Source: Rhodothermales bacterium
GTDB taxonomy: Bacteria > Bacteroidota > Rhodothermia > Rhodothermales > Bin80
Length of the DNA: 62,269 nt
Assembly (NCBI GenBank): GCA_012271205.1
Contig: JAAXGT010000075.1
Coordinates: forward strand, 1-62,269
Direction of reading: 5' to 3'
Shown: positions 6,989 to 62,269 of the stretch, in pieces
How positions within the stretch are numbered: position 1 is the first letter of the stretch
Layout: the number at the start of each line of letters is the position of its first letter
Notes under the pieces: model-generated
The model's database searches: none
Told to the model about the DNA's origin: nothing
Seen by the model: only the letters and a program-made list of their open reading frames with translations
Program-made: the position numbers and the translations under genes

Positions 6989-8154
6989 GAGATTACTACG
7001 AGGTGCTCGATGTTCAGCGGGATGCTACGCCGGAGGATATTAAGAAAGCGTACCGCAAGAAAGCCCTCCGCAATCATCCCGATCGTAATCCTGGAGATAA
7101 GGAGGCCGAGGCGCGCTTTAAGGAGGCGGCTGAGGCCTACGAGGTCCTCAGCGATAGTGACAAGCGGGCACGCTATGACCGTTACGGCCATGCGGGATTG
7201 CGTGGTGGAGCCGGGGGCGGGCCCGGATTCACGGACATCAACGACATTTTCAGTGCGTTCAGTGACATTTTTGGCGGGGCTGCTGCTGGCCGGGGTGGGT
7301 CGGTGTTCGACAGTTTTTTTTCCGGTAGCCGTCAGCATACTCGCGAGCGGGGGCAGCGCGGTGAGGCACTCCGCATGCGGCTGCCGCTGACGCTGGGAGA
7401 GATTGCGGAGGGCGTTGAGAAGCGCATCAAGGTACGTCGCTTTGTGTCATGTGAGGAATGTGGTGGCAGCGGTGCGGAAGGTGGATCTGATGCAATGAAG
7501 GCGTGCATCGTCTGCAACGGGTCCGGTGAGGAGCGGCGCGTTCGCCAGAGTCCGCTTGGTCAGTTTGTAAGTGTGATCCCATGCCGTCATTGTCGTGGTG
7601 AAGGTCAAGTGATCGAAAATCAGTGCGTGGCATGCAAGGGGCAGGGCCGCGTGGATGGCGAGCCTACGATCAAGATTAACGTGCCGGCTGGTGTAGAGGA
7701 GGGAATGACGATTAACTTGCGTGGTCAGGGCAATGCCGGTGTTCGTGGCGGCTCTGCAGGCGATCTGCGTATTGAGATTGAGGAGTTGGCGAATGAGCAT
7801 TTTGTTCGCGATGGTAACGACCTGTTGTATGATCTGTACATATCGTTCCCGGATGCGGCACTCGGTGCGGATGTTGACGTGCCCACGTTAAAAGGGCGTG
7901 CACGTGTTCAAATTGATCCGGGCACACAGTCCGGCAAAATTCTGCGAATGCGTGGACGCGGTCTGAGCGGGCTGCATTCCAGCCGGCGAGGCGACCAGTT
8001 GGTGCGAGTGCACGTGTGGACACCTCGTAATCTGTCTGACAGAGAAAAGAAGGCACTGGAAGATTTTCGAGAATCGACCGCGTTCAGTCCGAGCGGAGAA
8101 CGCCAGCGCGAGAGTAAATCGATTTTTGATCGTGTGAAAGACGTGTTCACCTGA
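6985..8154 (+). CDS. dnaJ: Chaperone DnaJ
   Basis: J domain with HPD, G/F-rich region and four CxxCxGxG zinc-finger repeats. Confidence 0.98.
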
Positions 8155-8178
8155 GCAATCACGGGCACAAAGTTCGTA

Positions 8179-8697
8179 ATGAGTTCAGAAGTGGATGGCG
8201 AGGCCTTGCGACAGGTCATGCGTTGGGTGCCGTCGCCGGTGACGGTGGTGACGGCTGCGACACCTGATGAGATTCGTGGTATTACGATAGGCTCCTTTAC
8301 CAGTGTCTCACTCGATCCACCGCTTATTTGCTTCAATGTGTCCGACACCTCGCGCATGCATCCGGTAATCTGCGAGGTGGAGCGGTTTAATGTGCATGTG
8401 TTGTCGGACCGGCAGGTCAAGCTTAGCACATCGTTTGCCGAGCCGGAACGTGGTGGCAAGGAACAGTTCCAGGATGTGCAGTACACCCTGGATCCGTATG
8501 GCATTCCTGTTCTGCAGCGTGTGGTTGCACAGTTAGCGTGCAAGTCGCACGCGGTCTATCCGACCGGAGATCACGTCATGGTAGTGGGTCGCGTATGCAG
8601 CATCAAGGTCGATGAGCGGCGCAGGCCATTAGTCTTTGTGCAACAGGGCTACTTCAGACTGGGCCAACGCATCGCCGCGGGCAAGCAGCTCCTTTAG
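8179..8697 (+). CDS. Flavin reductase (HpaC/RutF-like) family protein
   Basis: SFTSVSLDPPL and GDHVMVVGRV motifs. Confidence 0.9.
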   Translation: MSSEVDGEALRQVMRWVPSPVTVVTAATPDEIRGITIGSFTSVSLDPPLICFNVSDTSRMHPVICEVERFNVHVLSDRQVKLSTSFAEPERGGKEQFQDVQYTLDPYGIPVLQRVVAQLACKSHAVYPTGDHVMVVGRVCSIKVDERRRPLVFVQQGYFRLGQRIAAGKQLL

Positions 8698-8721
8698 GTC
8701 ACTACGACTATTTGTAACAGA

Positions 8722-10105
8722 GGCTTTTCCTCCAATCGAGTGGGTTTAGTGGTAGATTGAATAGCACCTGCAATGGGCTGGATGGGATTCTTAGCCGTGT
8801 CCGGTCTGTTTTGGGACATCCTAACGCAGTTGTTCACCGTTGAGCATCCCCTCTACGATAGGTCCGTGCGAGCGAAAGATTTTAGCCGACTCTGAGGTCT
8901 CCCGGCGCCCGGGGAGGTTTCGGAGATAACGCGGGCCCCTAAGGAGCGAGCCGTCCCGGTTTACGGGACCGGCATGGACGGTGCGGCGCGGACCGGTCCA
9001 CCGTGTAGCGTCGTTGGTCCACGCTACGATCACCGCCGTCGGCCATGCGTCACCGGGACCGGTGCGCCTACCGGACCCTGGTCGTGGCGGACTTTCCTCG
9101 GGTAGACGGCCCGACGCCTAGTGGGCACACGGGGCCCCTTCCAAGGGTGGAGGCGAAGTCGCGGTTCCCGATGGAGTTGGAGTCTTTGGTGATGGATGGG
9201 CGGCCGGAGGCGAGTGGGTCGGCGGGGGCCCGTCTGAGGGGGGGAGCTGGACGGCCCTAGACCGGATCAGGCAGCAGGCGGGGCCACGGGGGCTGGCGGG
9301 GAGCCCGGCGCTCACCTTGGCGTAGACGAGACATCGTTCCGTAAATGGCCTGATTAGGTCACCCTTGGGTCCGATGCTCAAGTGGGCCCCGTGCTGCATG
9401 GGGGGTAGACCGGACGAAAGCCGCCCTTGCGCAGGGGTATACCGGTCTCACGTCGGAGCAGCTGGAGAACATCGAGCGGGTTCGCATGGATAGGTGGCCG
9501 GCCTCGATCAACGCCACGCTGGAGCCTGGGCTTGGGGCCCAGCCGAAGGGGGCGTTGGACCGGTTCCACGGGGCTCCATGTCTGAATGCGGCCGTGGACC
9601 AGGGGCGGCGTCCGGAACACCGGGCCTGGATGAAGCCCGGACGGCCCGATCTCAAAGGGACCCGATAGGACGGGTGGACCCACCCGGCCCACCGGCCGAC
9701 GGCCCGTTTCGAGCCGTGGCGTACCCGTACGTTGAAGACGGCCCGAGCGGGGGGCCTCCAAGATCGGGCCCAGCCGTGGGGGTACGATGCGTGCCGCCCC
9801 GGGGCCCGCCAAGACGGGGAGAGCAAGTGGTCCGGGGTGATGCGGGGCCGACTGGAGCCGATCAAAGCGGCGGCCCGGACCATCCAAAGACACCGGGGGG
9901 GTATCCTTAATGCGAGGGCCCTCAAGGGGAGCCAGGGTCCGGCGGAAGGCCTCAACCGCCGGATCCAAACCATCAAAGTGCGTAGTAGCGGCTTTCGTAA
10001 CCAAAGCCGGTTGGCCCACGCCATTTACTTTCACCTTGGAAGTCTCGATCTATACCCCGAAAGCGTCCACAGGTAAACGTACCCACTTAAAACCAACGAA
10101 GAACC
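8722..10105 (+). mobile_element. ISL3-family insertion sequence, degenerate (about 1.38 kb)
   Basis: Left end GGCTTTTCCTCCAATCGAGTGGGT (8722) and right end, read in reverse complement, GGTTCTTCGTTGGTTTTAAGTGGGT (10105) form imperfect inverted repeats; ISL3 transposase remnants lie between them; no target duplication visible. Confidence 0.85.
8866..10076 (+). pseudogene. ISL3 transposase pseudogene (stops, frameshifts, heavy substitution)
   Basis: Fragments match ISL3 motifs: RYDHR..RH(L)D..C, PRV.(C)P, LKTARA(W), RLEP and GILN..S.GPAEGLN..I..IK.RS.GFRN..AIYFHLG.LDLYP; in-frame TGA at 8893. Confidence 0.88.
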
Positions 10106-10629
10106 AAGCAAATGGCAAGTTAGCCCAATTTCCACGAAATTCCGTTTGGCCACGCACGAGCAGTTGATGGAAGGTCGGTCAGGATCATGCTGGTATCGGC
10201 TCCACGTGGCCAGAATCCGATGTCTGTGTGGACGTTTAGATGTAGAACCAACTGCTAGGAAATCCGTGTGGCAAGTGCCGTATACGCTACTCCAGTCGGG
10301 CGCAATACTGTCGGGTTAGGCGGTCCTGCGACGACAGTCAGCATTTCAAATCCGGGGAAACGTGCTTGAGTCGCCGTTTCAAGACGCGGTGTCTTCTGTA
10401 AATTAAGGGAGGCTATCAGATTCCCCTGACCGGAAAGCGAAGAAATGGGGCTCATGCGAGCCACGACTTGCCCGCGACCACGAATACTAATGAGTACGAA
10501 GGCCCGGAGAAAACTCGATACAAGGACGGCTATTCCCATGCACTTTTTCGATTCTTCGCTGCTTGGGTACGTTCCAGTTGTACGCCAACGTCGTAGATTT
10601 GGGTGATTCGTAGAGCACAGCGACGGAAA

Positions 10630-13224
10630 ATGGCCACCTATCCATTCAAGGCGATCGAAAGCAAGTGGCAGACCTACTGGGAATCGCACAAGACCTTCCA
10701 TATACCAGTGGAAGTCGACACTTCCAACCCAAAATTCTACGTGCTCGACATGTTTCCCTATCCCAGTGGATCGGGGCTGCACGTCGGCCATCCTGAAGGA
10801 TATACAGCCAGTGACATCGTAGCCCGCTACAAGCGCATGCGCGGTTTCAATGTGCTGCATCCTATCGGCTGGGACGCATTTGGATTGCCCGCCGAACAGT
10901 ACGCCCTGCGCACAGGCACGCATCCACGCATCACGACCGAGAAGAATATTTCGCGGTTTCGTGCGCAACTGAAATCCCTTGGGTTTTCATACGACTGGGA
11001 TCGCGAAGTGGACACGACCGATCCAGACTATTTCAGGTGGACACAGTGGATCTTCCTACGCCTGTTTGAACGTGGACTGGCCTACGAGGCTGAAGTGCCC
11101 GTCTGGTGGTGTGATGCATTGGGTACTACGCTGGCCAATGAGGAGGTTATCGACGGCAAGAGTGATATCGGAGGCCATCCCTGTGAGCGGCGAAAGCTGC
11201 GCCAGTGGGTTCTCAGGATTACCAGTTACGCGGAGCGTTTGCTGCAAGGGCTGGAGGAAACCGACTGGCCGGCGAGCACCAAGGAAATGCAACGCAATTG
11301 GATCGGGCGCAGCGAAGGCGCAGAAATCGATTTTCCGATCCAAGATCATGCGGACCAAGCCATTCGTGTTTATACGACGCGGCCGGATACGATATTCGGC
11401 GCCACGTATATGGTGCTCGCCCCAGAACACTCGCTGGTTGGAGTGATTACAACACCGGAGGCGCTGGACGGCGTAACAGCGTATCAATCACAGGCGGCGC
11501 GCAAGAGTGATCTCGAGCGCTCGGAACTGCAGAATGAAAAGACCGGTGTTTTCACGGGGGCCTATGCCCAAAATCCCGCAACCGGGAGCCTAATTCCGAT
11601 TTGGGTCGCGGACTACGTATTGGCCACGTACGGAACAGGTGCCATCATGGCGGTACCTGGGCAGGATGAGCGGGACTGGGAATTTGCAGAACAATTCGGC
11701 CTTCCCATACGACGCACGGTACAGCCGCCGGAAGATTTTACGGGGAATGCCTTCACTGGCGACGGACCGGCCATCAACAGCGAGTTTCTGAACGGATTCC
11801 ATGTGGCAGAGGCCAAGTCTTGCATTATCGACTGGCTGGAATCCGAAGGCAAGGGGACACGAAAGATAAACTACAAGCTGCGCGATTGGCTGTTTTCACG
11901 CCAGCGCTACTGGGGGGAGCCCATTCCAATCGTGTTCGAGGATGGAGGCGCGCATGCGCTGCCCGATGATGCCTTGCCCATCACACTGCCGGAATTGGAA
12001 GAATTCAGGCCAAGTGGATCTCCTGAAGGTCCGCTGGCACTGGCAACCGATTGGCTCCACACAATCAACCCGGCCACCGGCCGCCCTGCCAGGCGCGAAA
12101 CCAACACCATGCCTCAGTGGGCCGGCTCTTGCTGGTATTTCCTGCGCTATATCGATCCGCACAATACGGATGTACTAGTCGATCCCGGCCTCGAAAAGTA
12201 CTGGATGCCCGTGGACCTCTACATAGGTGGTGCAGAGCATGCCGTGCTCCATTTGCTGTATGCCCGGTTTTGGCACATGGTGCTCTATGATGCAGGCATT
12301 GTATCCACGTCCGAACCCTTTGCCAAGCTCGTACATCAGGGCATGATCTTGGGCGAGTTGGAATACACGGCTTGGCGCAATGTAAACACTGGAGCGTGGG
12401 TGTGTGCCAGTAAAGTTATGGATGGCCGTGAGCGGGATTCCGGTGATGAGGTTGAGAGTGTGCGTATCGTGGAGGAAGTCGCCGAAAAGGTCAGTGACCA
12501 TTTTGTGTTAAAAGAAGCGCCGGATATTCGGCTGGACGTGCGTGCTTTCAAAATGAGCAAGAGCCGCGGCAATGTCGTCAATCCGGACGAAATAATCGAA
12601 CAGTATGGGGCGGACGCGTTTCGCCTCTACGAATTGTTTATGGGCCCGCTTGAACAGGTCAAGCCATGGAGTACGCGCGGAGTCCAAGGTACTTTCCGCT
12701 TCCTGCGTCGCGTCTGGATGCTCTTAACAGAACGGAAGATTGACGATACTTCACCCTCTGTCGAACAACTGCGCGTGCTGCACAAGACAATAGCACGAGT
12801 GTCTGAGGATATCGAAAGCCTTAGGATGAATACGGCTATCGCAGCGCTGATGGAGTTTGTCAATGCAGCATACAAGTGGTCTAGTGTGCCGCGTGCCATT
12901 GCTAAACCGTTTGTTTTGCTGCTTGCGCCTTTTGCACCGCACATAAGTGAGGAGTTGTGGGAGCAGCTGGGGCATTCGCAGTCTCTGGCCTACGTGCCAT
13001 GGCCGGAATCGCAGGCGCAATACTTGGTGGATGAGTTTGTTAAAGTTCCTGTACAGGTCAATGGGAAAGTGCGGGCAACGATTCAAGTCGCCCCCGATGC
13101 CGACAAGAACCAAGTGCTGGAATTAGCCAAGAGCAACAAGAATGTGCAGCGCTTTTTGAATAATAAGCCACCCCGTCGCGAGATCTATGTCCCCGGCCGG
13201 ATAGTCAATCTGGTAGCCGCATAA
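10630..13224 (+). CDS. leuS: Leucine--tRNA ligase
   Basis: MFPYPSG.GLHVGH (HIGH), editing domain, KMSKS and [19 protein letters not shown] at 10630. Confidence 0.98.
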
Positions 13225-20496: not shown

Positions 20497-21305
20497 TCTT
20501 CGGGTAGCACAAGTAAACGCTGGCGCTATCCGAAAGATCAGGCGTAGATCCTGATCCCCAGCGACTGATTGCGCAATGTCGTTCAGAATCGCACGCGTGC
20601 GGTTCACCGATTAGCTTAGCACACAAGGTTTGAGACCAACAAACATGGTGAGCATAGTTGTCCATCTCTGCGGAGTGAGCCATGGCATCAGCCGGCGAAC
20701 CTTGCATTATACACCCACTATTCGTGTCGTGTGACAAACGTCGAAGAGGCCTGTTGCTCCCCGAAAACACCACTCAAAAGCTATAAGCGATTGGGTTACC
20801 GTTCGGCACACGGCATGTCTGACGCCTCACGCCTCACGCCGAAGCCTAGGACTCAGCAGAGAGTACTCCAGGGTCATTCCGTGGCTTTCTCAGAGTCTGG
20901 CCGCGGCACCAGCTTGAAACGGATGCGACAACCCGAACTGGTTGTCGAGTCTCACAGCTATAGGTGGGGCAATGTGGGCAAACACACACGCATGGAGCGG
21001 GAAACGGAAAGCGCACGCTCTCTAAAGCGTGGTAAGACTCATCCTGACGGAAATTTGCCTTTCTGAATGGTAATCTGGCGAATCAGATCTCGATCGAGTG
21101 GTTTCCGCCCGCCAATTTGCGATTTGAGTAGTCAAGTCTTAATCTGCAGTACAATGGAGACTTGACTTAACAGAAAGCGCAAATCGACAAAGTGGCACTG
21201 GTAGCGATCGGACGGAATTCTCTTTCTGCACCGAGAGACAAGACAGTCCAAAGGTTGTCCTCCGGCTCTGCGGGGATGCCTCGTTCGAAATCCGCAGATC
21301 AAGAA

Positions 21306-44290: not shown

Positions 44291-45643
44291 CTAACGAGTT
44301 CCCAGCCCGGTGGGGTTGGGTCCAACCTCAAGCATCTTTTCTATGCTGTGCGTCTGGGTATTGATAACCGCAATGGCACCGGGCATCAGGTCACTCTTCC
44401 ACTGATAGCGCCCTTTGAAAACCCCGTTCAGGTTATTGTTGGAGATGTATACGTAGTGTCCGTCCGGGGATATAGCCGCACCATGAGGCTGAGCCAATCC
44501 TTCCACGACTCCAGCCACGCGACGTTCAATGATGTCGACAACCGTAGCTGTTCCGGCCATTTTGTTGCCAATCCAAACTTGCGTGCCATCCGGGCTGAAT
44601 ACCGGATGCCATGGAGCAGCGCCTATCTTGATGGATTCCATCAGGACGGGTACCTCGGGAGCCGAGGTGTCAAAGAAAAAGAACTGTCCCGTGAGTTGTC
44701 CTCCCACTACCATGGTGCGGCCGTCCGGCGAAATCGCAAACTGCACCAGCGTGTGTGTCTCCCCTTCAATGGAGGTCAACTCCAGGTTCTCCGTTTCGTG
44801 ATTCAACGTGGCCATGCTGTTCTGGGCCAGGCTGCCTACGTACACATAGGTGCCCAAAGGGTGGATCGCCAGCGCGTGCGGGCGCGGGAAGAACACGTCG
44901 ATCTCTTCGATCTCCATGCTTGTACGGTCGATTCGCCCGATCCGCTGCGGCGGGTTGACCGCCTTCATGGATCGCCCCACAAACAGCAGATTCTGATCCT
45001 GATGCACAGCCACCATGCCCGGTCGTTCAAAGTTCGTACGGCCAACGAGTTCGTTTTCGCGGTTGAATTTGAGCACGACGTCATCGCCAATAAGCGACAC
45101 GTAGAAGGCCGACCCGTCTGGTTCCACCGCTACATGGTGCGGCCTGGAGTCCGCCGTAAAGCCCAATTCCTGCAAGTCAATGGTCCGAATGACCACATTG
45201 GCATCCATATCGATCACCACTACTGTTGCAGCGCCCTGAATGCAGGCATACAACAGGTTGGTGGCGTCAGCATAGGCTATCGAGCCATCGTCGCTGGGTG
45301 CCCCGCTGTCTATCCATTGTCGCACGGCAGCCATGTCGGCTTCCGACAACTGTGCCGCACGGATCCGCAGCGGATCCGTGTCCGCCAGTTGTGTGGTCAA
45401 TCGAATCAGCAGACTACGATCCGCATCATAGGGGATTACTACTTCACCATGATTGGAACCCGCCATAAGGGCATCCCAAGAGTCGAGATCGAGGCCGGTT
45501 TCGCGTTCCAGTAGCGGGGCAAACTTCTGCTGCAGAATTGGCAGGATATCCTGACTGAAAACGACAGGCTGGCTCTGGGCTACAGCACCCGCGACCGGAA
45601 AAAGCAGGTATGCCGCGAGAGCGGTAAATGCGATACGCATCAC
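44291..45643 (-). CDS. YncE/YVTN-like beta-propeller with N-terminal PSCyt1-like domain lacking CxxCH
   Basis: Signal peptide; VVFSQDILPIL...GLDLDS...G..VIP.D...SLL...LS..D...V..WID.GA; propeller repeats PHHVAVEPDG, PHALAIHP, FSPDG and PHGAAISPDG. Confidence 0.8.
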   Translation of the reverse strand: MMRIAFTALAAYLLFPVAGAVAQSQPVVFSQDILPILQQKFAPLLERETGLDLDSWDALMAGSNHGEVVIPYDADRSLLIRLTTQLADTDPLRIRAAQLSEADMAAVRQWIDSGAPSDDGSIAYADATNLLYACIQGAATVVVIDMDANVVIRTIDLQELGFTADSRPHHVAVEPDGSAFYVSLIGDDVVLKFNRENELVGRTNFERPGMVAVHQDQNLLFVGRSMKAVNPPQRIGRIDRTSMEIEEIDVFFPRPHALAIHPLGTYVYVGSLAQNSMATLNHETENLELTSIEGETHTLVQFAISPDGRTMVVGGQLTGQFFFFDTSAPEVPVLMESIKIGAAPWHPVFSPDGTQVWIGNKMAGTATVVDIIERRVAGVVEGLAQPHGAAISPDGHYVYISNNNLNGVFKGRYQWKSDLMPGAIAVINTQTHSIEKMLEVGPNPTGLGTR

Positions 45644-48009
45644 GTGTCTACACTTCGCTTTTTGACAATGAACAAGCCCTCATTCCCACTCGTGACTACA
45701 ATGGAGCCGCTGGGGAAGTACGGATAGTTGCTCCATGATCCGCCAAATCCGGGCTTGTCCGGACCGTGCGGTACGGTGTCGAAAAAGCCAACTTCGACCG
45801 GATTGGCTACATCGCTGATATCCAGAATGCGCAGGCCGCTTTCGTAGTTGGACTGGTACATCAAATCGCCCAAAATGTACAGGTTGTGGTCGCTGGACGG
45901 GTTTTCTGACAAGTGCTCCTTTAGCAGCTGCGGATCGTCAAGATCCGACACGTCCCAGATAAGGGTGCGCGTGTTTTCAACGCCGCCTTGGAGCTCATCA
46001 AGCTCGTCATTCATAAAGAAGTACGCCTGATCTTCGGTAAGCCACCCCTGGTGCGCGTAGGCCACGTTTGGATAAGAGGCATTGGAGAGGGCAATTGTGT
46101 TGTCCTTGTCCGTTACGTCCGAAATGCTTAGCGCGGTTTCGTTCGAATTAAAGCAAATCTCACGGCCGCTATAATCCGTGTCCGGGCCGTTGTAAATGAC
46201 ACACTGGGCATCATGGGAATAGCCAGTACCATTTCTTCCAGTACCCGTGTCGGCGAAGCAGCCTGAGAACGAGGGATTCAGGGGATCCTGAATCCTGATT
46301 ATGTGCAGTCCGCCGCCGCAAGTTTCACCGCCGCCGTTGCTGCCGACTGCGAATGCATAGCCCGTGTCTTCATTAATAACGATGTTGTGGGCACTGGCTA
46401 TCCCGTCATAGAGGGCACTGGCAGAATAAACGGCGGGTTCGTCAGTCATCTCGCGCAACTGCGTCAAATCAAAAACCTGCATGCCGTGTTCGCCCGCGCC
46501 ATCTGCTACTATGAAGGCATAGTTTTGATAGACCTTGATATCTCGCCAAACGGCGGGATTTGCTCCTTCTGTCAGTGGTAAGTCGCCTTTGAGTACGGGG
46601 TTGGCCGGATCGGTGATGTCAACAAACGAGGTTCCGTCGTTACGTCCGACCAAGGCATACTCTCGGCCTGACTCCAGGTCGGTCCAGCCCCAAATATCAT
46701 TGGTGCGCGAGGATTCACCACCCCCCAAATCGGGCACCGTCATAAATGAGAGCAAATCCACATTACTGCAATCGAAATGGGAGGCCATACCCTCTGTACA
46801 GTCCACTGAACCAGAGGACTCGAGTACTATAGGAGGACCGGTGCTGGATATGGCGGCTTCTCTGGATAGTTCACCAGTTTCCGGATCCAGCGTAACCAAA
46901 GAGACGGCACCCTCGCCCGAGTTGGCAGCAGGCGCACTGATAATTGCAATGTTATCCGAAAGCGACAACACCATGCCAAATGCCTGTTCTCCAGAGTTCG
47001 CGCCAATCTCTCCAGTCATCGTCCACTGTCCGCTGCCCATATCGAGGGCATAGCTGTACGCAGCGCCAGAAAACGCATTGGCTCCGGCGGCTCCTACTAA
47101 AAGGTGATGGCCGTCCAGTTCAAATGAAAAGCCATATAAATCAATATTGCCAGCCGGCCCGGATAACACCTGAAGCGCCTCCATACCGTTATCGGTGACC
47201 TGCGCCCAGACTACGTTGCCGGGGGGAGGTGGTGCTGTGGGCTGCACGTTCGGTGCGAGCCCAGGTGCGCCCACTAGAACCTGGTCACCATTGAGCGCTT
47301 GTATTTTAACGCCGAATGCGGTCCCAGCCAAGGCCAGAGGTGTCGGGTCCAGTATTTGTGTCTCTACCCATTCTTCGTGCGGCATCCGGAAAACATGCAC
47401 GACCCCTGCACCCTCATTGCTGCCCGGTGCGCCGACATAAATCGTCTCGCCGTCTGTTGAGGTGCTGATGCCAAACAAGCTGCCTTCCTGGATTTCTGCC
47501 GGTGCGAGGCTACCAGATTGCATCCAACCGTCGGCGTCGTGTGTGAAAACGACGACCGGTGCGCCTCCTCGCATACCGCCACTGGCGATGAAATCAGGGC
47601 CAACCGCCAGGTTGGCACCAATCTGATCGGCCTCTCCGGCTGTCAATTTGGCGGTTTCGGTCCAGCCGCCGGTCCGCATGTCCCGCTCAAATACGTATAT
47701 GGCCCCTGCGCCGGCTTCCAAGGACGGTGCACCAACGACCAGCCGGTTATTCCGGACGTTCAGCGCATATCCAAACCAATCGCCCTCTGTGCCGTCAGAA
47801 GCAGTGAGTTCGGCCGCGACATTCCACTGGGAACCAGCCAGGGATCGCTGAAAAATGAACACGGTACCCGGTTTGCCAAAAGGGGCAGGATGGCCCACGA
47901 GCAGGTTGTCACCACTGATGCCGGTTGATAACCCGAACGCATTGATCTGCGCTTGCGCGGCAATTACCGGACAAGAGAAAAGAAGAAGTAGCGGGATAAG
48001 GCGCTTCAT
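45640..48009 (-). CDS. Choice-of-anchor B family protein (FG-GAP N-half + LVIVD-like C-half), copy 2
   Basis: NDIWGWTD, WRDIKVY, HGMQVFDL, AHNIVINE, GGLH, YSHDAQCVIY.GPD, YAHQGW, DHNLY and WSNYPYF. Confidence 0.88.
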   Translation of the reverse strand: MKRLIPLLLLFSCPVIAAQAQINAFGLSTGISGDNLLVGHPAPFGKPGTVFIFQRSLAGSQWNVAAELTASDGTEGDWFGYALNVRNNRLVVGAPSLEAGAGAIYVFERDMRTGGWTETAKLTAGEADQIGANLAVGPDFIASGGMRGGAPVVVFTHDADGWMQSGSLAPAEIQEGSLFGISTSTDGETIYVGAPGSNEGAGVVHVFRMPHEEWVETQILDPTPLALAGTAFGVKIQALNGDQVLVGAPGLAPNVQPTAPPPPGNVVWAQVTDNGMEALQVLSGPAGNIDLYGFSFELDGHHLLVGAAGANAFSGAAYSYALDMGSGQWTMTGEIGANSGEQAFGMVLSLSDNIAIISAPAANSGEGAVSLVTLDPETGELSREAAISSTGPPIVLESSGSVDCTEGMASHFDCSNVDLLSFMTVPDLGGGESSRTNDIWGWTDLESGREYALVGRNDGTSFVDITDPANPVLKGDLPLTEGANPAVWRDIKVYQNYAFIVADGAGEHGMQVFDLTQLREMTDEPAVYSASALYDGIASAHNIVINEDTGYAFAVGSNGGGETCGGGLHIIRIQDPLNPSFSGCFADTGTGRNGTGYSHDAQCVIYNGPDTDYSGREICFNSNETALSISDVTDKDNTIALSNASYPNVAYAHQGWLTEDQAYFFMNDELDELQGGVENTRTLIWDVSDLDDPQLLKEHLSENPSSDHNLYILGDLMYQSNYESGLRILDISDVANPVEVGFFDTVPHGPDKPGFGGSWSNYPYFPSGSIVVTSGNEGLFIVKKRSVDT

Positions 48010-48083
48010 AATCCAATTTTAAATTGTTAGGATTGGGTTAAACAGTACAGATAAACGGGACGTGCCTCAAAAGGATGCAGCGT

Positions 48084-50453
48084 TCAAATGTCTACATCTT
48101 GCTTCTTGAGAATGAAGAGGCCTTCATCAATGCTGGTGACCACGATAGTTCCGCTCTCAAAATAGGGATAATTGCTCCACGAGCCGATGAATCCGGGGGA
48201 ATCGGGGGCCACCGTAATTGTGTCGAAGAACCCAACTTCCACCGGGTTTGTCATGTCGCTGATATCAAAGATGCGCAGACCACTTCCATAATTGGACTGG
48301 TACATCAGATTGTCGCGAATGTACAAGTTGTGATCGCTCGAAGTATTCTCGGCCAAGAACTCGCGGGCGAGTTGCGGGTCATCCAAATCTGTGACATCCC
48401 AGATTAAGGTCCGGGTACGATCAGCCACGTCACCGAGCTCGTCAAGCTCGTCATTCATGAAGAAGAAGCTGTGGTCTTCAGTCAGCCATCCTTGGTGGGC
48501 ATACCGGACATTGGGGTACGAGGCATTGGAAATAGCTGCCGGATTCTCCTTATCGGTTACGTCCGAGATACTGAGTGCGGTTTCATTCGAGTTAAAGCAG
48601 ATTTCTTTGCCGCGGTAGTCGACATCCGGACCATTGTAAATCACGCACTGAGCATCGTGAGAGTAGCCCGTGCCGCCCCGTCCGGTATCCACATCTGAAA
48701 AACATCCCTCAAAGGTCGGGTTGGCTGGTTCCTGGATATTGACCATGTGCAGGCCACCGCCACACGTCTCGCCATCACCGCTGGCCCCCACGATAAATGC
48801 GTATCCTGTGGCCTCGTTAATGACGATGTTGTGTGCGCTCCCTACACCATCGTAGGTCGTGAGAGCTTCAAACATAGCTGGGGGCGAAGACACGTCGCGC
48901 AGCTGCGTCAGATCAAATACCTGCATGCCATGAGCACCGGCGCCGTCTGAGACTACGAATGCATGGTCGTTGTAGACTTTGATGTCACGCCATGTACTCC
49001 GCTGGGCTCCTTCGGTCAGGGGCAGATCACCGATGAGCACCGGCGCGGACGGATTCGAGATATCGACAAAGGCCGTGCCATTTGTTCTTCCGACGAGCGC
49101 GTACTCAACGCCGGTTTCGGGATCTGTCCATCCCCAGATATCATTGAGGCTGATGCCGGCCTCGCCGCCCAAATCGCTGATGGGCATAAAGGCCAAGAGG
49201 TCTATATTGCTGCAACCAAAGTGCAGTACCGTTCCTGCTTCACAGTCCACGCGTCCTGATCGCGTCAGCGTTATTTCCTCCACCAGAGCCATGCGCCCGG
49301 TCCGGTCTGCGCCATCATCTGTGATGGTAAAAGCCACGATCGCGCCCTGATCGTAATTTTCTCCCGGTGCCAGCGCCGCCACATGATTGCCATTCAGAGC
49401 CACAGTTGACCCGAGTCCACTTTCATTCTCCGCCGCTTCGACTTCGAATGTCAGAACCCAAGAAGATGTTGTTGCCTGACGGGTATAAATCTGAACCTTG
49501 GGGCCACCGCCCGGCAAACCGATCAGAAGCCGTTCGCTACTTAAGGCCATGGGGATTTCTGCATTGTATTGGAGAGAGCGATCACGAAGGCTGTCGATCA
49601 CGATAGTCTGCGTCCACATGCCGGCATCATCGAGCGAGAGTTCGAAGATTGGGCCAGAGGCAGGGATGTTGCTAAATCTGATTTGTCGCACTCCAGCGTC
49701 GAAGAGCTCCTGAATGCTGAGTCCCGGCGCAGGTGCGAGTACTAATCCCGGTGCATAAGCGTATAGTGCTTTTCCGAACCCCTTTTGTCCGGGTGCGTCG
49801 AGCGTAGCCTCATGTGCAAAACCTGATTCGGACGGACGGAAGACGTAAACGGCCCCTGCCAATGAGTCGCGACCCGGTGCCCCTACATAGATACGTTCTC
49901 CATCGTAAGCGACCGCTTCGCCGAAGCGATCGCTTACGGCGAGACCGTCGGCCGTAAGGCGCTCAACCGTTTGGGCCTCAGCGCCGATATTTTGTACGAC
50001 CAGTACGGTATTGATACCTGGTGCGCCCGCCAGTAGCGTAGTCCCATGCAGATCCACCGCCATGCCCAGCCGCGCACTGCTGTCCGGGACAGCCAGCCGG
50101 TCCAGCGGTGCCCACTCACCTGAATCCGACTCACGTATGAACAGATATACTGCACCACGGCCGTCATCCGCACCTTCGGCCCCCACAGCCAGCATTTCGC
50201 CTTCCAGATCCATAACGGACGCGAATGAGTCGTCTGGCCCCACCCCATCCACGACATGCGTGGCAGCCAGTTCCCAGCCGTCATTCGAGGGTCGGAAAAC
50301 ACGCAGCGCGGCGGCCGATTCGCTGTAGACGGGCTGGCCGGCAATGATTTCACCGTCTCCCATTACAAGGGCGGATCCAAGCTCCGTGCTGGTTTGCTGG
50401 GCTCCCGTTGTAGCGGCGCATCCGCAAAGGCAAAAAATGAGGAGAAAACGCAT
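48084..50453 (-). CDS. Choice-of-anchor B family protein (FG-GAP N-half + LVIVD-like C-half), copy 1
   Basis: Same motif set as the neighbouring paralogue; signal peptide; VGAP FG-GAP repeats. Confidence 0.88.
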   Translation of the reverse strand: MRFLLIFCLCGCAATTGAQQTSTELGSALVMGDGEIIAGQPVYSESAAALRVFRPSNDGWELAATHVVDGVGPDDSFASVMDLEGEMLAVGAEGADDGRGAVYLFIRESDSGEWAPLDRLAVPDSSARLGMAVDLHGTTLLAGAPGINTVLVVQNIGAEAQTVERLTADGLAVSDRFGEAVAYDGERIYVGAPGRDSLAGAVYVFRPSESGFAHEATLDAPGQKGFGKALYAYAPGLVLAPAPGLSIQELFDAGVRQIRFSNIPASGPIFELSLDDAGMWTQTIVIDSLRDRSLQYNAEIPMALSSERLLIGLPGGGPKVQIYTRQATTSSWVLTFEVEAAENESGLGSTVALNGNHVAALAPGENYDQGAIVAFTITDDGADRTGRMALVEEITLTRSGRVDCEAGTVLHFGCSNIDLLAFMPISDLGGEAGISLNDIWGWTDPETGVEYALVGRTNGTAFVDISNPSAPVLIGDLPLTEGAQRSTWRDIKVYNDHAFVVSDGAGAHGMQVFDLTQLRDVSSPPAMFEALTTYDGVGSAHNIVINEATGYAFIVGASGDGETCGGGLHMVNIQEPANPTFEGCFSDVDTGRGGTGYSHDAQCVIYNGPDVDYRGKEICFNSNETALSISDVTDKENPAAISNASYPNVRYAHQGWLTEDHSFFFMNDELDELGDVADRTRTLIWDVTDLDDPQLAREFLAENTSSDHNLYIRDNLMYQSNYGSGLRIFDISDMTNPVEVGFFDTITVAPDSPGFIGSWSNYPYFESGTIVVTSIDEGLFILKKQDVDI

Positions 50454-61856: not shown

Positions 61857-62269
61857 TAGTGTCCTGAACGTAATGGTGGTTATGCAGAAGCGGCGGCCAG
61901 TGCCGGCCGGCTCCGCTCGACTTTCTGGAGCATCTCGTCGGCCGGCTTCGTCCAGACCAGGGGCCGGGGATGCTCGTTGCAGGTTTCGAGGCAGTCTTGG
62001 AAGGGCCGCTCCAGATCCGGCCCGGAAGGGAAGGCGCCACGGCGAAGCCGCTGCTTGGTCCGCGGGCTGAAGCCTCGCTCGACCCGGTTCCGCCCCGACG
62101 CACGAGTCGGCGTAAAGGGCCGGAAGAGGTGCTTCGGCCGCTCGATCCCGTCCAGGACCTTGGGGGGCTTGGGGGTCGCGTAGTGATCCAGGATGAGGGG
62201 GATCTCTGGGCTCTGGGGCCCGCCTTTCTCCACTGGGCGAAGGCATGTCAGCCCCTCCGGGTGGCGAGG
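61857..62269 (-). mobile_element. IS630-family element, 3' part (runs off window), with degenerate transposase 62269-61880
   Basis: LILDHYATPK, FTPTRASGRNRVER.F, RLRRGAF.S..DL and PRP.VWTK.ADE match the IS630 DDE C-terminus; end reads ...GGACAC-TA with TA target at 61857-61858. Confidence 0.88.

Follow-up and report, generated by a model that had tools for sequence, protein, structure and literature searches.

A:T>C:G transversion at CA/TG steps in dead, repeated mobile elements of a Rhodothermales bacterium

Bacterial DNA that has lost its function is expected to become richer in AT, through transitions and deletions. In Neurospora and other fungi, repeated DNA is mutated by RIP, which targets any two-copy duplication of several hundred base pairs and makes C>T transitions via the C5 methyltransferase-like RID/DIM-2 during the sexual cycle. 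Diversity-generating retroelements use a template repeat and their own reverse transcriptase to introduce A>N changes on one strand. A study of pneumococcal hyper-recombination is said to have dealt with MutY processing of recombination heteroduplex, and Cordaux in 2009 reportedly described an endosymbiont whose dead IS copies undergo gene conversion. The latter case resembles ours in that dead IS copies exchange sequence; it differs in that the outcome was homogenization, and we found no report of a directional A:T>C:G bias for it.

A:T>C:G change itself has been described in several settings. In mutT mutators of E. coli and P. aeruginosa it is almost pure and strand-symmetric, with TTC/GAA raised (PMC10995721, PMC12318082), as in the genome studied here, where, however, the change lies inside elements only, CA/TG stands far above GAA, and a MutT-like domain is kept as in unaffected relatives. 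Oxo-dGTP mutagenesis by Pol IV (DinB) in P. aeruginosa likewise yields A>C transversions that are uneven along the genome and Ala/Gly-producing, but it prefers GAC/AAC (PMC12318082) where our genome shows CA, and no Y-family polymerase was found in the latter. A model for Helicobacter pylori has MutY act on G:A mispairs in recombination heteroduplex and predicts short-patch, one-way A>C change at A:G mispairs (PMC2582958); it concerns transformation between strains and not a long-term ratchet within IS families. The signature SBS17, T>G from dUTP, UNG and translesion synthesis, offers an alternative chemistry without oxidized dGTP (bioRxiv 10.64898/2026.08.21.746158), but it is human, genome-wide and dependent on translesion polymerases, which were not found in our genome, and TT is the coldest context in ours. 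No description of a process like the one reported below was found for bacteria in the open-access full-text literature, subscription papers lying outside the scope of the search; on that literature the process is new for bacteria, in agreement with a sequence-only reading that knew of no bacterial equivalent.

The window, the whole stretch of 62,269 nucleotides that was analyzed, is contig C179 of genome G000 (3.34 Mb in 224 contigs, 92% complete, 56% GC); C-numbers denote contigs, X-numbers sequencing runs, and G001, G016 and the like relatives. Four of the eight sequencing runs that contain the window stretch are labeled coral reef metagenome. At 8722-10105 (+ strand) lies a dead ISL3 element of 1384 bp, of which 905 positions (65%) are G or C, with ends placed by alignment with the C17, C110 and C107 copies and with intact copies. 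Pfam detects DDE_Tnp_ISL3 (PF01610, E=1.4e-13) at 9732-10073, a tblastn-level transposase match runs along the gene, and identity to intact ISL3 elements of relatives is 70-72%. In the transposase pseudogene (8860-10076, + strand) the start ATG reads AGG, frameshifts occur, and W>G, C>G, V>G, L>R, H>P and Q>P replacements are many. A TGA stands at 8893 as had been noted, but its proposed origin from TTA is uncertain, intact relatives having TTG or TTC at that codon. The left terminal inverted repeat (8722-8746, + strand), where loose ends of reads begin at 8722, is imperfect against the reverse complement of the right end, and the right repeat (10081-10105, - strand), recognized by comparison with the left, is eroded; both begin with GG. 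ISL3 elements make an 8-bp target site duplication; the two flanks of this copy differ and gave no match, and the duplication may be eroded.

Both neighbors of the element are intact. On the left is a flavin reductase gene (8179-8697, + strand; PF01613) and on the right leuS (10603-13224, + strand), in which A:T>C:G is not raised: at codon positions 1 and 2, 3 of 584 conserved A/T sites have it. The two genes directly adjoin each other in the loci of 10 relatives, so the ISL3 element inserted into a core locus of the lineage. The end of a second mutated element, of the IS630 family, occupies 61857-62269, with 22 of 42 CA/TG sites changed. Elsewhere in the window (45640-50453), two tandem paralogous ORFs of 789 aa, about 69% identical in DNA to family members, show transition-rich ordinary divergence.

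Substitutions in the ISL3 element were counted at columns invariant in eight intact copies from five relatives. A:T had become C:G at 93 of 318 A/T sites (41 A>C, 52 T>G), against five AT>GC changes (A>G 3) and three AT>TA changes (A>T 2); the 418 G/C sites carried 38 GC>AT, 13 GC>CG and only 2 GC>TA. The dominance of A:T>C:G that the sequence-only reading had left to an alignment with intact ISL3 is therefore borne out, at 93/318 versus 2/418 for the reverse class. Its hand counts of G and C (47/60 at 9241-9300, 46/60 at 9661-9720 and 24/60 at 21121-21180) were exact on recount, and the peptides that it quoted, VMDGRPEASGSAG and TIQRHRGGILN, are both present in the + strand translation. Its estimate of 30 to 40 sites concerned real changes but undercounted the 93 in the alignment, and its phrase "few exceptions" understated the 38 GC>AT changes, about half of which the C17 copy has in common with the window copy (20/39). 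The C17 and C110 copies had A:T>C:G at 55/267 and 15/82 sites, whereas ISL3 loci of 11 further relatives, some of them decayed, showed 0-19 AT>CG versus 5-63 GC>AT. Within the window copy, forward change at CA/TG reached 53/103, and the reverse, GG>TG/CC>CA, 0/52. The densely mutated interior (8860-9950) holds 87 of the 93 sites; five follow 9950, and one precedes 8860, a region with few invariant columns. Per 100 bp, the last two bins had 6/40 and 4/40 sites changed and interior bins 5-12 of 25-35.

Context was assessed for T>G (or A>C on the other strand) in ISL3 and IS630 copies where both neighbors were conserved. TG changed at 172/336 and all other contexts together at 46/595, counts of copy-sites because the copies are not independent. 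Among the other contexts, TA gave 12/99, TC 32/364 and TT, the coldest, 2/132; GAA/TTC (22/99) was the sole raised context outside CA. Over all mobile matches to G016, the four NTG contexts were changed at 24-41%, compared with 1-4% in non-mobile genes. A C>G excess at CG in IS630/ISL3 (19/258) was not repeated in a larger set. Neither extended context, local GC, DNA folding nor clustering along the element predicted which sites were mutated.

The signature extends over the genome's mobile DNA. G000 contains 91 GC-rich segments (87 kb), 80 of them repeated elsewhere in the genome, and Pfam assigns its mobile segments to ISL3, IS4/5, IS630, IS110, IS1595, IS21, IS66, IS1182-like and group II reverse transcriptases; in dead elements of many unrelated families, among them ISL3, IS4/5, IS630, IS110, IS21, IS66 and group II intron remnants, one-third to one-half of CA/TG steps have become CC/GG. 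Single non-synonymous differences were tallied in alignments of G016 proteins, from the 2.4 of 3.6 Mb fetched, to G000; segments below 50 codons or 38% identity were left out of the comparison of mobile and non-mobile segments. The mobile set comprised 134 queries, Pfam-named ones chosen among broken or strongly biased matches and extended by BLAST; remnant scoring added 8 further queries, several lacking a Pfam match. The 201 mobile segments had 2857 AT>CG versus 689 reverse changes, and 1307 intact non-mobile segments 16060 versus 12009; CA/TG accounted for 53% of AT>CG change in mobile segments and 17% at baseline. Across 90 element ends, the CA+TG index was 0.48-0.52 in the flanks, 0.41 in the first 50 bp and 0.31-0.34 beyond 200 bp.

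Of 377 windows with an index below 0.25, 346 were mobile or repeated. Ten remaining mutated-like regions were scanned: three match an IS3-type integrase, IS66 or DUF7146, one is a HEAT-repeat gene, and six have no match, so that seven lack a transposon or primase match; two of the matchless six align to G016 proteins, one of these being an IS110 transposase. The DUF7146 remnant (C45:1-900, L206), which we take to be primase-associated, is partly repeated and equally low in the CA/TG index; mutation may thus extend to mobile DNA other than IS. At C42:3345-6200, an oxidoreductase pseudogene is split by an unnamed element (AT>CG 16 versus 3, only 2 in CA/TG; for some query-contig pairs the pseudogene context counts include additional segments). 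An AT>CG excess also occurs in LRR-subtilase and TonB paralogs, which were rejected as targets, with 5-6 of 41-57 changes in CA/TG. GC4 minus GC2 was uninformative as a test, being 0.10 in both G000 and G016. Overall, the process is very probably confined to mobile repeats, as had been proposed from the window alone; it spares non-mobile pseudogenes, element flanks, fourfold sites and non-coding DNA that is unique.

Which elements are mutated was examined in 104 of 163 remnants, each with at least 12 scorable sites. The median CA/TG change rate was 0.35, and 18 remnants lay below 0.10, the between-genome background being a few percent. With A:T>C:G transversions excluded from the computation of identity, the rate rose with identity to the nearest copy, from 0.14 where there was none through 0.21-0.23 below 90% and 0.43 at 90-95% to 0.49 above 95% (Spearman rho 0.57, n=96). 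This correlation may be an outcome of conversion or of element age and not a requirement. Present copy number had a weak effect (0.30 to 0.43), and stops per kilobase did not correlate with the rate in the 104 remnants. Divergent IS1595 and old IS5 copies are unmutated although neutral. The IS1595 copies at C206:18313, C67:12428, C31:19251, C119:3174 and C163:5431, which are 77-83% identical to one another, had 0/30, 1/32, 3/40, 0/25 and 0/16 sites changed. Among 16 near-identical non-mobile gene pairs, we counted 95 A:T/C:G transversions (46 in CA/TG) versus 265 transitions; mobile pairs had 1117 (668 in CA/TG) versus 1573. Non-mobile duplicates of 87-97% identity kept a synonymous CA/TG value of 0.384 versus 0.399 genome-wide, whole genes being counted. 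The CA/TG signal in non-mobile duplicates is thus at most mild, and some of the pairs may be strain variants or very young.

Mutated sites are largely the same from copy to copy. The IS630 comparison used 16 copies and four outgroup loci; a within-family majority consensus cannot polarize the changes because the majority is itself mutated. Scripted reversal of A:T>C:G in IS630 restored a stop-free frame of 385 codons, in support of the polarity. Variants were present in at least two copies at 58 of 69 CA/TG sites, compared with 24/114 for GC>AT, 2/27 for AT>TA and 1/18 for GC>TA, and 86 of 107 TG sites were mutated in at least one copy. Between the C10 and C34 copies, 50 sites were mutated in both, 15 and 4 in one only and 34 in neither, while 3 transitions were common and 18 and 22 private. 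In four long copies, 29 of 62 interior sites were mutated in all and 9 in none; 2000 shuffles, which modeled independent hits with rates specific to the 5' base, gave 14 and 0.9 (maxima 21 and 4). A further pattern, 11 of 75 sites mutated in three of the four, is not predicted by a single mutated ancestor. The C132 copy groups with C10/C101/C126/C179 by other changes (four informative splits) and lacks 6 mutated sites common to all six other copies. Identical 8-mers occur among always-mutated and rarely-mutated sites alike. Together with the C132 copy and the four-copy agreement, this indicates that the history of a site matters and not context alone. Much of the IS630 sharing outside CA is explained by a neighboring G in the copies. 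In 8 other families, polarized by one distant outgroup, sharing outside CA (30/73) was no higher than in other classes. Polymorphism between samples was too low for use, with one single-copy difference listed in 20 kb.

From the spectrum, its context, the confinement to repeats, the spared ends, the dependence on similarity, the sharing of sites and a MutY gene that reads as intact, all observed, we infer a homology-dependent process at work. The reading that we put first, tentatively, is a one-way conversion ratchet, in which copies would pair and MutY would resolve A:G to C:G. Near-identical copies of multi-copy IS and group II intron remnants would form the paired DNA, MutY would take out the adenine of A:G mispairs in it, leaving C:G, and A>C alleles would then be passed on between copies, a single site at a time; the net result would be CpA/TpG turned to CpC/GpG on both strands. 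For the first mutations, a possible source is misincorporation of G or 8-oxo-G across from A at positions where C follows as the next base of the template, an error that repair synthesis in repeats would probably make more frequent. Such a next-nucleotide effect would suit the CA context of these mutations. We favor pairing and a putative role of MutY because they predict a single direction of change, spread by individual sites with no co-conversion, spared element ends, and immunity for sequence that is single-copy or divergent; the direction matches MutY, and only A:T>C:G is driven. MutY and recombination genes appear, by sequence, to be present and intact in G000.

The ratchet has weak points. 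Relatives carry the same MutY-NUDIX, and G016 also has one DnaE and no DinB or MutM, yet they are unmutated. At a background transversion rate, an estimated order of 100 copies per family would be needed, and the assembly has 4 ISL3 and 16 IS630 copies. The sharing pattern is weaker in the 8 single-outgroup families, and we know of no CA preference of MutY. No signature was seen in ISL3 copy sets of five relatives (35, 13, 3, 5 and 5 copies in G013, G005, G001, G016 and G009) or in 31 broken G016 copies, the copies compared in relatives being mostly younger and only 4 G016 copies equally diverged. Mobile loci of 13 family genomes ranged from 0 to 7%, and 42 outside ISL3 loci (31 metagenome, 11 GTDB; 41 aligned) showed at most 5/21, both without the signature. 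On account of the unaffected relatives and the shortfall in first mutations, a dedicated RIP-like enzyme stands close behind.

Such a system, possible but on balance doubtful, would recognize repeated or mobile DNA and strike each copy anew, at the adenine of CpA or the thymine of TpG; the base might, for instance, be modified or cut out and the position then refilled with mis-templating. It would have no supply problem and would suit a sharp dinucleotide preference, heavy change in few-copy families (ISL3 55/120 sites; the C143 intron remnant 46 versus 5) and a restriction to one lineage though its repair genes equal those of unaffected relatives. But independent hits fail to predict the site-by-site agreement unless there is an unseen determinant, none appeared within ±6 bases or in folding, non-mobile duplicates of 87-97% identity keep synonymous CA/TG, and the families searched (Piwi, DinB, PolX, PrimPol/LigD and MPG) yielded no candidate. 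In its broadest form, a patchily distributed bacterial RIP analogue that detects multi-copy DNA by homology, turns CpA to CpC and sterilizes IS and group II intron populations, the idea is rather unlikely to be right. Likeness to RIP is considerable: the process is repeat-confined, stronger in more similar copies, active on both strands at CpA/TpG and lethal to transposases, and it acts on repeats of many unrelated families in proportion to identity. In G000, however, adenine changes by transversion, GC rises, the driven change is not C:G>T:A, and two-copy gene duplicates appear to be hardly touched. The process works like RIP but is not RIP. Of the RIP analogy drawn earlier, the dependence on copy similarity and the CpA target stand; a dedicated anti-transposon defense is more speculative: no responsible enzyme was found in the families searched, ordinary gene duplicates are at most weakly affected and the sharing of sites fits biased conversion better.

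Nothing in the list of repair genes searched distinguishes G000 from G016. A MutY-NUDIX fusion (C215:8026-9102; L168:817-1893) carries at its C terminus a complete Nudix box that exceeds the TIGR00586 MutT cut-off; it is the sole MutT-like match in G000 and in 4 relatives, none of which has a stand-alone MutT, and both MutY and the MutT-like domain appear intact. Motif searches and tblastn recovered MutS, MutL, RecA, UvrD, two UDG-like proteins and one DnaE; HhH-GPD, DnaE and UvrD are the same as in G016 and not discriminating. DinB, Piwi, dGTPase, MutM, PrimPol/LigD, MPG and PolX gave no match in G000, which is 92% complete, or in the 4-5 relatives searched. About 680 G000 proteins had no match in the fetched part of G016. 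The DnaE (C93:47505-51728) is about 125 aa longer than its G016 ortholog, at residues 843-967, and the surrounding sequence presumably resembles an intein. A C5 methyltransferase beside an MzaB-like HATPase gene (C130:5690-9052, L298) has a 67% ortholog in unaffected G016, and two N6/N4 methyltransferases lie on C161 and C174. Adjoining tpiA is an intact Drt1a of 1247 aa, a reverse transcriptase-nitrilase defense protein (C90:5-3745, L297); of 25 relatives, G004 and G008 have it too, with no mutation in the IS loci sampled from them, so that it does not discriminate. A diversity-generating retroelement was likewise rejected, as A>C 41 and T>G 52 fall on one strand and the four RVT_1 matches are three broken intron reverse transcriptases and Drt1a.

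An improbable explanation is that a small number of progenitor copies were mutated in one short episode, while transposing or while carried on an error-prone replicon, and that these dead copies were then multiplied in trans or homogenized by unbiased conversion before the transitions accumulated. Many changes are common to all copies, inactivating ones (W135G, C137G) included, lightly mutated copies form nested subsets (C83 has 7 changes in common with C10 and 0 of its own), and spared ends would leave elements mobilizable. It does not account for the 6 otherwise universal changes missing from C132 or for the 11 three-of-four patterns, and the families affected move by unrelated mechanisms (DDE, IS110 recombinase and reverse transcription).

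A genome-wide mutT-like mutator, visible only where selection is absent, is very improbable. The substitution class is that of mutT (PMC10995721), GAA/TTC is raised, and young non-mobile duplicates have a mild CA/CC excess (46/95 transversions). Yet at 371,507 fourfold sites of unique genes the frequency of A was 0.399 after C, 0.321 after G and 0.358 after T, and that of T before G was 0.393, without depletion. Relative abundance of CA was 1.16 in unique genes, 1.14 in unique non-coding DNA (543 kb) and 0.91 in non-coding repeats, and 0.85 in the window ISL3 versus 1.22-1.32 in intact relatives. These figures are incompatible with a genome-wide episode that changed half of CA sites. Eleven non-mobile segments with at least 2 internal stops stood at 93 AT>CG versus 62 reverse changes, against a baseline of 1.34, with stops per codon no lower than in mobile segments (31/2416 versus 175/26,973), and 18 of 104 mobile remnants are unmutated, some with several stops. 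G000 has 5 NUDIX domains, its relatives 3-4. The top context also differs from that of P. aeruginosa mutT strains, GAA 3.2 followed by CAA 1.6, with CAG 1.2 (PMC12318082). A genome-wide mutator is thus largely refuted, and the earlier argument that mutT would have acted everywhere is upheld by neutral single-copy DNA without the signature.

We give almost no credence to Illumina T>G errors in collapsed repeats: the assembly is a short-read metagenome of 224 contigs with many mutated elements at contig ends, but independent contigs of two studies have the same letters over 8153-9376, private transitions and indels tell the copies apart, and other multi-copy IS in assemblies of relatives are unaffected. 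Logan contigs with 0 differences to the window cover 8153-9011 (X1), 8651-9131 (X2), 8710-9076 (X5) and 9074-9376 (X7); they are contigs and not raw reads, and one of the two studies may be the source of the assembly. The consensus is matched without a difference at 8153-9376 and, in the 3' half of the ISL3 element, is covered only by variant copies in the contig pieces examined. At 9302-9468, runs X1, X5 and X6 contain a less mutated ISL3 relative, about 86% identical, with ancestral A/T at several mutated sites and, in each of the two studies, a depth 3-5x that of single-copy DNA; it could stem from an intact family of the G000 organism that is missing from the assembly, or from another organism. 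At 9521-9811, runs X1, X6 and X8 contain a variant copy that the assembly lacks; it has 9 additional bases after 9690, only 2-4 substitutions and mutated letters in common with the window copy. A variant copy that changes to C17-type sequence at 9753 was not taken to prove conversion, since the contig could be a chimera joined within an identical stretch of 38 bp.

Contrary to the expected drift, about 100 kb of mobile DNA in this organism moved toward GC through a single rare transversion at a single dinucleotide, with the element ends as the border. The A:T>C:G change hides dead elements from Pfam, as in the 7 of 10 mutated-like regions lacking a transposon or primase match. A simple index, CA+TG versus CC+GG in IS and at fourfold sites, is applicable to all genomes to trace the cause, and the case offers a direct test of GC-biased conversion in bacteria. 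Whether made by a dedicated enzyme or as a by-product of recombination and MutY, the change would be a general route by which many transposon families are inactivated together.
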